A stretch of 39,847 nt of DNA from Planctomycetota bacterium (GTDB lineage: Bacteria > Planctomycetota > Planctomycetia > Planctomycetales > Planctomycetaceae): assembly GCA_031416875.1 (NCBI GenBank), contig JANOUN010001537.1:1-39847 (forward strand). The letters run 5' to 3'. Positions 2,033 through 4,935 of this stretch are shown here, piece by piece. The translations under genes were made by a program, and so were the position numbers. Below the pieces are notes generated by a model. The model was not told where the DNA came from. It searched no databases and saw nothing but the letters and a program-made list of their open reading frames with translations. Position 1 is the first letter of the stretch; each line of letters starts with the position of its first letter.

Positions 2033-4935
2033 TGGCGATCAGGCTTACCAAGGCAGCAGCGCGTAAGATCAAGGCGAAGTGGGACGCAGAAGATCCGTTG
2101 CTGCATTACGTTCCAGCAACGACGTTAGCGCGCGCGGGTGAGTCGAAATCGCGGTATATATGCATTCACGCGCCGAACCAATGTCTCGGTGGAAATACAG
2201 AGATTTACGACCCCGTTGCTAAGATCGCGCGCAAGGTATCGGAAATTGACTCGACGTTTCACGTCTATGCATGGGATGAGTACGGCGGCCAAATGGTCGT
2301 CGCTCAGGCATTGACCCCTGAGCGACTTGAGACGGATGAAATTTACGTTGTCACGCTGTCGGATGGGCGTCGTTTTGAGTCTTCGCTAGGTCACCGTCTG
2401 CTTTGCGCTGACGGCAGATGGCGTACGCTTTCAGCAATCCCGCTTGGATGCGAACTTTACCGTCCTCCGTCCACTTTGGGCAACGGCCAGTCAATTCATG
2501 TCGCAGATGGTCTGCGTTCGATGAATACAGACCAAGATTCTCAATCCGATTATCGTCATTCACGCCGTTTATGTGATGAACAACTTCAGTCGGCAGAAGG
2601 TATCGGCCAAGAAGTTTCTCCATCACCAGGCGATGCTCCGCTACGTAGCATGGACTTTGACCAGAAAGCTTTCGGGCATACGGATGACCAGGGGTATAAA
2701 GAAGCACATACCCATCCTTTTCCACGGTCCGCCCCCCCTTCCAGTTGGGGTGACCAGGGCCAGAGCGAGGCCCTGACTTCATTGTCTGAATCCCATTGCG
2801 TCGGCACGCAAGGGCCACAGCCGCAACCCCAACACAAAAGTGATCGGCAACAATTCGCTGTTGCAGCTTCTGAACCTCAATCATTTCGCGAATTTGCTGT
2901 ATCTCTTCAGCAGATGGCTGGAATGGAACGCGTCTCTCTCTCATGCGGCCTCCGTGTGGTTAGTTGTGTGTTCGTCCGCAATGATCATAAGTATGACTTC
3001 GAGGTACCAAACTACAGCAACTACCTAGTTGGTGGGTGTGTCACACACAACTGCGGTAAAACTGCTTGGATGCAGTACATCGTAGCATCGGCATTACGCA
3101 ACCGCAACACAAATTGGGTAAACGCTCGTCCGATAAGAGTTCTTCTCGTAATTCCGACACGCGCACAAGCCGCTGACGTGTGGGGCAATCGCATGCTCAA
3201 GGCCTCCGGATTGTTCGGCGCGATGGGCAAGCATCCGTGGATTCCGGCCCGCGAGATCAAGCGGACGTACAACAGCTTTTCGCCAGCAGGCCCATACCCC
3301 GGCAAGATCGTGATGAAGAACGGCAATGAGCTGATCACTATCCTTTCCGGCGTTCCTAACAGCTGGAAGGCGCTGGAAGGCATCACGGTCGACATGGTTA
3401 TCCGTGACGAAGTTGCAGGAACAGAGAATCTTGGCGATGAGCTTCAACCACGCTTACTGGCATCTCGCACACGCGCCTTGGCAGGCATGCAGCCATGGGG
3501 CGGCGTGATGATTTGGGCGGCGACAGAGACGAAATACAACGAAGAGTGGCTCCTGTACAAAGGGCGCGCCCTGGACGGCCAGCCTGACCACGTTTATTTC
3601 AAGCCAGAGCCGGAAGAGGCTGAAGCATACATTTCGATGAAGGCGCGCGAAGAGATGCGCAACTCGATGTCGGAGAAATCGTACAAGATTCGTGGCGCAG
3701 GATCGCTTGACGCAGGCGATTTGGTGCGAATTTTCGTCAAGCAGTGGGACGACAAGCGCCACATGCAGGCGACCGACTACGTGATCAAGGATTCCGACAA
3801 CATCATGATCGGATGGGATCCTGGCACGCATCACCCTACCGGCATTGTCATCGCAGCGATTAGCAAAGACGCCGCGTGTCAGATCAAAGTCGTGAAATGC
3901 TTCCGTCACACGAACGAAAGCATCGAATTTGACGCTGAGCGCATCCATTCGTTCCTGCTTGGGCGGAAGATCGCCGGTTTCGTCTACGATTGGGCAGCAA
4001 AAGCCGCTCATAAAGGCCAGCCATCATTGCTTCACCTCATGATTGCGGCGCTGGAAGCAAAAGGTTACGTGCCGCTGGCCGGATATATCCAGGCAGACAA
4101 GCGCGTAGAGCCAGGAATCAACTCATTCCGGCACTATCTTGACCCAAACCCTTTCGATTCGACCGTACAGCCGCTTTTTGTCGTCAATTCAAGCCCGGAA
4201 TCAGGCGGACAGATGCTGCGATCCGAGATTATGGGCTATTGCAAGACGGAGCCGACCGGAACGAGTCCAGGCAAGATCGTGAAAAAGAACGATGACTTGT
4301 GTTTCGTCGCACAAACCATGGTTCGGATGGCTGACTATTCGCAAAAGCCCATCATTGACGTAATCGCAGGCGACATGGTGGCCACTCCAATCGGGCCACG
4401 CAAGGTAATCCGCTCATGGATGAGCAGCGCATCGGCGCATGTGTCCACCTACACGACAATGGCAGGTCGCTCAGTAACATGCACGCCAGGGCACCGCTTT
4501 TGGGTAAATAGCAGCGAATGGCTGCCCATCAGCGGGATTTCACGCCATGACAAACTATCTGCATGGACAGAAGAGGCGGAAACGCTGGAAATTGACCGCA
4601 TCAAGTCGGCCACCCCACAACTGCCAGCGCCAGTTTATGACATCGAGGTGGACGAAGCTAATTGTTTCTACGCTAATGATCTACTGGCGCACAATTGCGA
4701 CCCATCACGTTACCTCATCCGCTCATTCCCAAGCTGGTCATCCGCGTATTCCTGCGGCAGGCCCAAGTTTGAAGTGTTAGTGCCGATGGAAACCGCGCCG
4801 ACGAAGCTTCCTGCGGGCGTCATCACGCAAACCATGGAAGAATATCGCGCCGCGTTATCGAGAAAGCTGGCAAATCGGAATCGTGCCAGCGTGCGCAAAG
4901 AGTTCAGTTACCGTCCGACGTACGCAATTCAGTAA
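2032..4935 (+). CDS. terL: Terminase large subunit precursor (967 aa) containing two inteins; predicted spliced product 545 aa
   Basis: With inteins removed, Walker A reads HAPNQ|CGKT (AxxxxGKT). Walker B is VDMVIRDE. Nuclease motifs are IGWDPG and KKNDDL|CDPSRY. Confidence 0.9.
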   Translation: MAIRLTKAAARKIKAKWDAEDPLLHYVPATTLARAGESKSRYICIHAPNQCLGGNTEIYDPVAKIARKVSEIDSTFHVYAWDEYGGQMVVAQALTPERLETDEIYVVTLSDGRRFESSLGHRLLCADGRWRTLSAIPLGCELYRPPSTLGNGQSIHVADGLRSMNTDQDSQSDYRHSRRLCDEQLQSAEGIGQEVSPSPGDAPLRSMDFDQKAFGHTDDQGYKEAHTHPFPRSAPPSSWGDQGQSEALTSLSESHCVGTQGPQPQPQHKSDRQQFAVAASEPQSFREFAVSLQQMAGMERVSLSCGLRVVSCVFVRNDHKYDFEVPNYSNYLVGGCVTHNCGKTAWMQYIVASALRNRNTNWVNARPIRVLLVIPTRAQAADVWGNRMLKASGLFGAMGKHPWIPAREIKRTYNSFSPAGPYPGKIVMKNGNELITILSGVPNSWKALEGITVDMVIRDEVAGTENLGDELQPRLLASRTRALAGMQPWGGVMIWAATETKYNEEWLLYKGRALDGQPDHVYFKPEPEEAEAYISMKAREEMRNSMSEKSYKIRGAGSLDAGDLVRIFVKQWDDKRHMQATDYVIKDSDNIMIGWDPGTHHPTGIVIAAISKDAACQIKVVKCFRHTNESIEFDAERIHSFLLGRKIAGFVYDWAAKAAHKGQPSLLHLMIAALEAKGYVPLAGYIQADKRVEPGINSFRHYLDPNPFDSTVQPLFVVNSSPESGGQMLRSEIMGYCKTEPTGTSPGKIVKKNDDLCFVAQTMVRMADYSQKPIIDVIAGDMVATPIGPRKVIRSWMSSASAHVSTYTTMAGRSVTCTPGHRFWVNSSEWLPISGISRHDKLSAWTEEAETLEIDRIKSATPQLPAPVYDIEVDEANCFYANDLLAHNCDPSRYLIRSFPSWSSAYSCGRPKFEVLVPMETAPTKLPAGVITQTMEEYRAALSRKLANRNRASVRKEFSYRPTYAIQ
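2182..3051 (+). mobile_element. Intein 1 (290 aa) inserted in the terL Walker A loop; no sense-strand endonuclease motif
   Basis: Starts CLGGNTEIYDP (block A); block B SLGH. Ends KYDFEVPNYSNYLVGGCVTHN, followed by the +1 Cys of CGKT. The central ~150 aa is low complexity. Confidence 0.85.
2351..2944 (-). CDS. HNH homing endonuclease (197 aa) encoded antisense, entirely inside intein 1
   Basis: Core [47 protein letters not shown] (HNH_3-like, as in phage homing endonucleases). N-terminal HTH-like segment. GGAGG 4 nt upstream of the ATG at 2944. Confidence 0.75.
   Translation of the reverse strand: [197 protein letters not shown]
4300..4695 (+). mobile_element. Intein 2 (132-aa mini-intein) inserted in the terL nuclease-domain motif
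   Basis: Starts CFVAQTMV; block B TPGH. Ends VYDIEVDEANCFYANDLLAHN followed by +1 Cys. Flanking exteins join to KKNDDLCDPSRY. Confidence 0.9.

Follow-up and report, generated by a model that had tools for sequence, protein, structure and literature searches.

An HNH_3 endonuclease gene nested antisense within a contiguous intein of a phage terminase gene

Contiguous inteins with an endonuclease gene on the opposite strand have been described in actinophages, where antisense LAGLIDADG or VSR-like genes lie within inteins that include those of terL, the gene for the terminase large subunit (Gosselin, Arsenault and Gogarten; bioRxiv 10.1101/2025.01.02.630785). According to that preprint, antisense LAGLIDADG genes were first described by Gorbalenya (1998) and Gogarten et al. 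(2002), and the examples given there include Synechocystis DnaX and a Chloroflexus SpoVR-like protein. HNH endonucleases in inteins are listed in the same work as in-frame type only, and full-text literature searches yielded no report of an antisense HNH gene in an intein. The stretch of DNA analysed here (the window) comprises 39,847 nt of contig JANOUN010001537.1, from a Planctomycetota bacterium assembly (GCA_031416875.1), and carries a terL gene with two inteins. Within the first of these, intein 1, ∼600 nt are open on both strands, and the opposite strand encodes a 197-aa protein with an HNH core. We estimate at about 80% the probability that intein 1 is a mobile class-1 intein whose homing endonuclease is encoded by a separate opposite-strand gene of the HNH_3 family, situated between splicing blocks B and F, the usual place of an intein endonuclease domain.

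Like the described antisense-endonuclease inteins, intein 1 is contiguous, with intact splicing blocks, a sense middle segment that lacks a recognisable fold and a complete opposite-strand endonuclease open reading frame (ORF) in that segment. Both occur in the essential terL gene, both come with evidence that intein and antisense gene spread as a unit, and for both the proposed origin is that a free-standing endonuclease gene invaded an intein. The endonuclease differs, however, being LAGLIDADG or VSR-like (EDxHD) in the described cases and HNH_3 here. The described hosts are actinophages, whereas those found here are uncultured phages, contigs of metagenome-assembled genomes (MAGs) from various phyla, and Pectobacterium phages. 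Also unlike the described cases, the clade reported here comprises at least 121 loci and 566 candidate stretches in IMG/VR, with a fixed frame relation and a conserved ribosome-binding site. The original prediction, made from the letters of the sequence, had regarded a contiguous intein with an antisense endonuclease gene as unprecedented; the LAGLIDADG and VSR-like cases contradict this. What seems unreported is the HNH_3 nuclease, the hosts, the large fixed-frame clade and its cultured representatives, which extend the known antisense arrangement. An in-frame HNH_3 intein is known from cyanophage CL131, with an endonuclease of the same family at the same place between the Hint halves, again in a phage gene. 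In CL131 the HNH domain is translated within the intein polypeptide, whereas in the window it would be a separate opposite-strand protein, and the in-frame reading is non-functional filler.

The terL ORF matched the Pfam family Intein_splicing (PF14890; E=5.5e-12, 46.2 bits, cut-off 35.8). Intein 1 interrupts the Walker A P-loop of terL (HAPNQ/intein/CGKT; slashes mark junctions), and its boundaries were set from the intein-less alleles P0121 and P0125, from the empty site of locus L024 and from an alignment of eight related inteins. The first residue is Cys51 of terL (CLGGNTEI), and this Cys is kept in 8/8 aligned relatives. The block B His is invariant across the same alignment, in which the block is otherwise variable (SAGH, SSGH, SLTH, SMNH, SGAH, THAH, TDEH). 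The intein ends in ...GGCVTHN/C; in the relatives HHN or NHN is followed by C, S or T, and one relative has SAN/S. The Pfam match and the eight-intein alignment thus bear out the splicing blocks first read from the sequence (CLGGNTEI, SLGH and KYDFEVPNYSNYLVGGCVTHN/C). At the same site, intein-less alleles read NQ-[VIL]GKT, with NQ[VI]GKT and no insert in P0121, P0124 and P0125, and the empty-site sequence of L024 or L025 is ...CACGCACCGAATCAA/GTNGGNAAGACGAGCTGG.... Removal of both inteins gives a computed terL product of 545 aa, and intein-less homologues in the alignment measure 541–558 aa. Since terL is essential and the catalytic residues are intact, intein 1 probably splices. A group I intron in place of intein 1 was ruled out: no Rfam family was matched anywhere in the window, hence no group I intron was detected, and the insert has both an open frame and splicing blocks. 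Positions of all features are given in Table 1.

Table 1. Positions in the window of the terL gene, its two inteins and the antisense gene.
Feature	Position	Strand	Description or basis
terL (terminase large subunit) precursor ORF	2032..4935	+	967 aa, two inteins; ORF list, PHROG phrog_2 match
Intein 1, class-1 type, 290 aa	2182..3051	+	terL aa 51-340; alignment with intein-less alleles and L024 empty site
N-terminal splicing region of intein 1	2182..2433	+	Block A (CLGGNTEIYDPV), FHVYAWD, block B
Block B of intein 1, SLGH	2383-2394	+	terL aa 118-121
Sense 'linker' of intein 1, S/P/Q/G/D-rich	2455..2943	+	Reverse-strand reading of the HNH gene; stop-free, not conserved as protein
C-terminal splicing region of intein 1	2989..3051	+	Blocks F and G (KYDFEVPNYSNYLVGGCVTHN); in all related inteins aligned
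+1 Cys and remaining Walker A of the C-extein (CGKT)	3052..3063	+	Sequence
Intein 2, mini-intein, 132 aa (CFVAQ...LLAHN/C)	4300..4695	+	Without endonuclease; Pfam Intein_splicing E=4e-8, Vint
Putative antisense homing-endonuclease gene, HNH_3, 197 aa	2351..2944	-	Wholly within intein 1
HNH_3 catalytic core, aa 104-141	2522..2635	-	Pfam envelope
Shine-Dalgarno GGAGG	2949-2953	-	4 nt before the HNH ATG (2944-2942); inside intein-coding sequence
Predicted three-helix HTH-like DNA-binding N-terminal domain, aa 12-49	2798..2911	-	AlphaFold2 and weak Foldseek matches

The antisense ORF, proposed at the outset as an HNH gene, matched Pfam HNH_3 (PF13392) over aa 104–141 (E=2.2e-8, 34.1 bits, cut-off 24.8) and the HNH endonuclease families of PHROG (best E=3.7e-25). 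Its 3′ tail overlaps block B and the GGAGG precedes its ATG, both as predicted; all the sequence features named in the original prediction were borne out. The AlphaFold2 model of the protein, built with 72 homologues, has a mean predicted local distance difference test score (pLDDT) of 89 and consists of a three-helix N-terminus, a beta-rich HNH core and a C-terminal helix. The three helices agree with the helix-turn-helix (HTH)-like N-terminus suggested earlier, and the top matches in a Foldseek search of the model against the PDB were HTH DNA-binding domains, all of them weak (E>0.07). Fold matches being only weak, the nuclease assignment rests on the sequence profiles. Sequence searches of the PDB with the HNH protein and with the intein as queries gave no match. 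As in the I-HmuI-type HNH enzymes of phage group I introns (PDB 1U3E), an HNH_3 core is combined with a separate DNA-binding module, and the likely action would be similar, namely nicking or cutting of the element-free allele. The carrier is an intron in the one case and an intein in the other, the domain order differs, the HTH being N-terminal in the window protein, and the structural match is weak.

Relatives were collected from metagenome, viral and genome scans with terL and HNH alignments, which gave a pool of 178 loci with an HNH match. A locus was classed as nested when an open frame of 400 aa or more ran antisense across the HNH gene. By this definition 117 of the 178 loci are nested; four more are nested but end at a contig edge, 56 are free-standing, and one (L012) has a single TAG in the sense frame. 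The free-standing relatives are mostly matches to the HNH core only, in MAGs of Actinomycetota. All nested cases share a single frame relation, seen already in the early relatives L001, L003, L007, L009, L011, L013 and L014; loci L019–L022, on long contigs, show the same nesting. In all further loci from the metagenome scan with the terL alignment, the sense frame was open, the inteins being 25–47% and the HNH genes 41–64% identical. The same alignment found no match among viral contigs, where a scan with the HNH alignment returned 566 IMG/VR stretches encoding relatives; among the best 80 of these matches, 79 are nested. Among GenBank phages, blastn with terL as query yielded a sole match, 116 nt in the HNH gene of a Streptomyces phage. 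A protein search with the 290-aa intein found nothing even though P0122, P0132 and P0144 contain the intein, which was attributed to a word-index limit.

The HNH protein itself has 2165 homologues, the best of them 60–64% identical, and these closest homologues are encoded antisense within long terL ORFs of their own contigs, where the gene-called terL measures 485–494 aa. Over 108 distinct nested HNH homologues, conservation is at least 90% for the motifs EHRLV, LGR, EVVHH, N, NL and HL, and the window protein carries the conserved catalytic motifs EHRLV, EVVHH, N and NL. Of 13 nested loci, 11 have a Shine-Dalgarno sequence (GGAGG, GGAG or AAGGAG) 4–9 nt 5′ of their first start codon. Sense residues 'SL' or 'GL' just before block F (alignment columns ∼397–408) overlie this antisense Shine-Dalgarno sequence, which reads CCTCC on the + strand; their conservation among the inteins probably reflects the ribosome-binding site of the opposite strand.

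The relation between the two frames explains how double openness is possible. Position 1 of the HNH codons coincides with position 1 of the terL codons, and their position 3 falls on position 2 of the terL codons. A stop in the terL frame needs one of the HNH codon pairs xTT/A, xCT/A or xTC/A, and nearly all such stops are removable by synonymous changes in the HNH gene. In the window segment there were 0 stops in the terL frame, as against 3–12 in each of the four other frames. When the window HNH gene was shuffled synonymously 2000 times, the terL frame acquired a mean of 5.4 stops and was open in none of the shuffles. Synonymous shuffles of eight diverged nested HNH genes gave means of 2.5–10.6 stops in this frame, which was open in at most 2.6% of shuffles (P≤0.026), and in 0/2000 for six of the eight genes. 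As a control, stop densities were determined in the 61 loci not classed as nested, 56 of which are the free-standing ones (mean GC content 0.516 versus 0.510). The terL-equivalent antisense frame contained 2.82 stops per 100 codons in the control loci and none over 18,098 codons in the 117 nested genes, whereas the other two antisense frames had equal stop densities in nested and control loci (2.7 and 4.7–5.0 per 100 codons). A frame open by chance is ruled out by the synonymous shuffles and the family-matched stop densities. These patterns indicate that, over the length of the HNH gene, stops in the terL frame are selected against.

Codon-position patterns were used to ask which strand is constrained where, as the original prediction had proposed. 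In the HNH-frame codon alignment of eight loci, variability followed the order position 3 > 1 > 2 in 28/28 pairs (position 3, 0.46–0.73; position 1, 0.20–0.53; position 2, 0.18–0.48). The excess at position 3 is characteristic of a protein under purifying selection, here the HNH protein. On the shared DNA, the HNH frame had a mean amino-acid identity of 0.47 and the sense frame one of 0.23. Seen from the sense frame, the pattern changes along the intein. From block A to ∼12 residues beyond block B it is sense-like, with sense position 3 most variable (0.60–0.76), and the N-terminal splicing region stays sense-like even under the unconserved C-terminal tail of the HNH ORF (from 2351). The intein middle is HNH-like, with sense position 2 most variable (0.51–0.69). 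The region opposite the variable HNH N-terminus shows no pattern, its three positions being about equally variable, and blocks F and G are again sense-like, with position 3 most variable. As judged from these substitution patterns, amino-acid selection at any one place acts on one frame only, the other being merely stop-free. The term 'dual-coding', applied earlier to the stretch, is thus apt in so far as both frames are open, but not if it is taken to mean amino-acid selection on both frames at the same place.

It could be argued that the middle segment of the sense reading is a novel functional in-frame domain and the antisense HNH similarity secondary. The frame is open and some sense stretches are conserved, for example PPSTLGNGQSIHVADGL. 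These stretches, however, lie across from the HNH motifs that are best conserved; position 2 varies more than the other two, the opposite of what is seen in a selected protein, and identity is half that of the HNH frame on the same DNA. No Pfam family matched the linker at E≤0.1, in keeping with the earlier reading that it lacks a nuclease motif. AlphaFold2, applied to the whole precursor, gave pLDDT values of 80–95 for the exteins and 60–78 for the beta strands of the N-terminal Hint domain. The linker (aa 145–305) had values of 24–30 and no secondary structure, from a shallow alignment in which only four sequences have the intein. We give an in-frame functional domain next to no credence.

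The same data bear on the possibility that the antisense ORF is an unexpressed, decaying remnant or a chance frame, which would make intein 1 in effect a mini-intein carrying a long loop of junk. No promoter was detected, stages of endonuclease decay are known in inteins, and L010 and L015–L017 have related inteins without HNH. Yet purifying selection on the HNH frame was evident in all pairs, the catalytic motifs are conserved, and the Shine-Dalgarno sequence is conserved even inside coding sequence. Stops would build up fast in a remnant because the sense frame gives the antisense frame no protection, yet the nested ORF is intact in 117/117 loci (median open length 218 codons). A remnant or chance frame is accordingly regarded as unlikely.

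The nested HNH inteins were found at several host sites. One is the terminase P-loop (GGN[QR]/[CST]GK[ST]), a second lies two residues downstream in terminases (G-K/T), and further sites are in the P-loops of large AAA+ or helicase-like proteins. In L114, L124 and L133 (a contig of Polaromonas sp. CG9_12), an intein with an antisense HNH gene was observed in the P-loops of non-terminase proteins of 1164–1852 aa, as in GDG/C...NHN/TGVGKGR. These non-terminase cases suggest spread between different P-loop ATPases.

This distribution also bears on the role of the HNH protein. The original prediction had allowed that it might be a packaging-associated nuclease. It would then partner the terminase, as do HNH proteins whose genes adjoin those of the terminase in HK97-like cos phages, and its place in terL would reflect functional coupling. 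The HNH gene does lie within terL, most nested copies were found in terminases, and HNH genes are known to neighbour terminase genes (PMC3592412). A conserved partner of the HK97 gp74 type would be expected wherever the terminase is found; here L024 and L025 have terL only, intact and lacking both intein and HNH gene, and intein-less terL homologues are common. The same nested HNH, moreover, occurs in AAA+/helicase-like and DNA methylase genes, and an HNH_3 domain combined with an HTH is of the homing-enzyme type rather than the small zinc-binding type. A packaging function is therefore disfavoured, and we consider it very unlikely.

In L135, L151 and L164, DNA methyltransferase ORFs (DPPY/DPPA, ...GTALKPA...) contain an in-frame insertion that carries an antisense gene of the same HNH family in the same frame relation; intein splicing blocks were not seen in these insertions. 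They may be the antisense counterpart of the hidden-HNH insertion known as the ShiLan domain (Arsenault et al., 2025; PMC11855218). In a tblastn search the window HNH protein matched DNA methylase insertions of the ShiLan type at ∼49% identity. In both the ShiLan domain and intein 1, an in-frame insertion into an essential or conserved phage gene conceals, in an alternative reading, a gene of the HNH_3 type. The ShiLan HNH gene, however, is on the same strand in another frame, within an insertion that lacks a splicing domain, whereas that of the window is antisense and in a bona fide intein.

Cultured carriers of the nested arrangement were found among Pectobacterium phages of the Ymer group and in Dickeya phage Setonix. 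In Pectobacterium phage Ymer (OP748252.2; L023), terL lies at 1496–3760 (-) and the HNH ORF at 2869–3567 (+). The 754-aa terL product is labelled 'hypothetical protein' in that record, and the 232-aa antisense HNH_3 ORF is unannotated. The N-terminus of the Ymer intein (CVHPHTKVYTEDG) is unlike that of the window's family. The publication on the Ymer-group phages makes no mention of an intein or of HNH.

The arrangement in the window resembles that of fractured genes (Dassa et al., 2009; PMC2677866), where the endonuclease position of an intein is taken by a stand-alone gene that has a start, a stop and a ribosome-binding site to itself, and free-standing relatives of the nuclease exist elsewhere. 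The nucleases of the genes studied there are GIY-YIG or Vsr-like, and the host gene is broken, whereas terL of the window is a single uninterrupted ORF. A single intein-associated locus among 122 has a stop in the sense frame: in L012 a TAG at 816–818 (frame +3), made by the HNH codons ACT/AAG of a nested HNH gene at 406–1176 (-). The C-terminal part of the intein and the extein are still in frame there, with an internal Met ∼55 residues short of the intein end. The stop could mean that the L012 intein is naturally split or that the allele is dead, or it could be a sequencing error; L012 may be a case that has crossed into the fractured state.

Could terL of the window itself be a fractured gene, its halves translated separately and joined in trans by a split intein, with the endonuclease gene between them and the open sense frame incidental? 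Split inteins with free-standing endonuclease genes exist (PMC2677866), and L012, with its possible internal start, would fit. The sense frame is nevertheless uninterrupted in 121 of the 122 intein-associated loci, and the 2.8 stops per 100 codons of free-standing family members make a difference that is understandable only if read-through is required. In the window, which has no stop, ribosomes starting at 2032 must read through. We regard a fractured terL as highly improbable. The idea that the window represents an intermediate on the way to a split-intein or free-standing arrangement finds some support in the TAG of L012, in the mini-inteins of L015–L017 and in the free-standing HNH relatives.

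L015–L017 have mini-inteins of the intein 1 family at the same site without HNH, and L010 has a related intein of 198 aa with a short junk linker, also without HNH. These four loci fit the usual cycle of endonuclease loss. Intein 2 of the window is missing in terL of L001 and L003. At or near this second terL site, full-size inteins of two other loci contain, in another frame of the same strand, an HNH_3 ORF (L026, 1551–2171 (+), Pfam E=3e-12; L027, 4144–4782 (+), E=1e-17). The L026 intein is a full-size relative of intein 2 and that of L027 a different large intein, and their sense reading looks like filler.

The proposed alignment of terL homologues with and without the intein revealed exact empty sites in two close relatives. 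L025 is 100% identical to L003 over >1.4 kb upstream of the site and 99–100% identical downstream, and lacks exactly the intein. On the left of the site the two differ by seven substitutions, mostly synonymous, in ∼27 nt, and on its right by several within 15–70 nt; at the +1 codon L003 encodes Cys and L025 Val. L024 is 93–97% identical to the window from ∼450 to 6300, lacks exactly nt 2182–3051 and retains intein 2; identity beside the junctions is only 75–88%. Such clustered differences at an empty site fit the pattern left by homing with co-conversion of flanking markers, and presence or absence of the intein in near-identical relatives points to recent homing or precise loss. The identities of HNH, intein and extein were correlated (Spearman ∼0.5).

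Collaborative homing by a two-gene unit is the best-supported account of these observations. The terL mRNA would be translated straight through intein 1, and the reverse reading of the HNH gene, a stretch of ∼160 residues that is probably disordered, would be tolerated as a loop. The Hint domain would then excise itself and restore the P-loop. An antisense transcript would be translated from its own Shine-Dalgarno sequence into an endonuclease with HTH and HNH domains. During co-infection, this enzyme would nick or cut intein-less terL alleles near the P-loop codons, and repair off the intein-bearing copy would move the intein and the nuclease gene jointly, and with them some tens of bases of the adjoining extein. 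We infer from the genomic patterns that the antisense gene is transcribed and translated, that its product cleaves specifically and that the intein actually splices.

Several points weigh against a mobile intein with an expressed antisense endonuclease. Expression of the antisense gene is deduced from its sequence features: a scan of the minus strand 5′ of the HNH start found no sigma-70-like promoter, though this consensus may not be that of the host, and the single site that the scan returned lies within the HNH ORF, at chance level. An obvious Shine-Dalgarno sequence is absent in 2 of 13 nested loci. The HNH model has no PDB structure match at E≤0.001, I-HmuI (1u3e) being matched at E=0.53 over 98 columns with a TM-score of ∼0.3. 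The low pLDDT of the linker reflects the shallow alignment, and intein 2, which is surely folded, also has low values. Precise loss, or a cleavage-resistant target variant, fits the clustered differences at the empty sites as well. No pairs were found in which HNH and intein identity exceeds 80% with extein identity below 40%, and recent long-range transfer is therefore not demonstrated.

We lean slightly towards a broader reading in which a whole clade of HNH_3 endonucleases is nested antisense in inteins in a fixed frame, as the outcome of one ancient capture followed by long dual-strand co-evolution. The host inteins would lie mostly in terminase P-loops of phages, and also in those of other ATPases. 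Under this reading the fixed frame relation implies the single capture, and the arrangement stayed hidden because gene callers keep one strand only, either truncating terL or, as in the Ymer record, leaving out the HNH gene. With copies numbering in the hundreds among environmental viral contigs, nesting would then possibly be a main mode in which terminase inteins carry a nuclease. Given also the same-strand, out-of-frame HNH_3 genes in a second intein of terL relatives, overlapped nuclease genes may be a common mode of intein mobility. The nested clade is apparently monophyletic.

Some features of the surrounding window were noted in passing. The ORF just 3′ of terL (4956–6002, +) encodes three repeats like STASTSTTTGALVVTGGVGVGG.LNVGG and has PHROG tail-spike or structural matches; its middle (5100–5850) is 46–65% identical to L024, which is otherwise 93–97% identical, and forms a local hypervariable segment. 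An ORF at 33158–34123 (+; 321 aa) matched PHROG replication-initiation families and, at residues 20–124, one family labelled as HNH endonuclease (E=1e-11). PHROG gave no match for most of the window's large structural ORFs, and the phage is accordingly poorly related to characterised ones.

For annotation, the finding means that terL genes with a nested HNH gene are mis-annotated, being truncated to about 485–545 aa in metagenome gene calls. In the calls of L001, L003 and L019–L022 the HNH gene is kept, terL is cut to 482–543 aa and 300–400 nt are left uncalled. The antisense-nested arrangement is in this way systematically hidden in protein databases. The Ymer-group phages are in culture, which makes antisense expression, splicing and homing directly testable. 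As overlapping genes, the two reading frames provide a clean natural example in which amino-acid constraint alternates between the strands along the sequence, the other reading being only stop-free. For intein evolution, the locus supports the view that splicing came first and the nuclease was captured later, with a free-standing nuclease family stably partnered with a mini-intein yet unfused to it. The neighbouring states are all present among related loci: free-standing HNH genes, antisense-nested ones, a possible split intein in L012, nuclease-less mini-inteins and empty sites.

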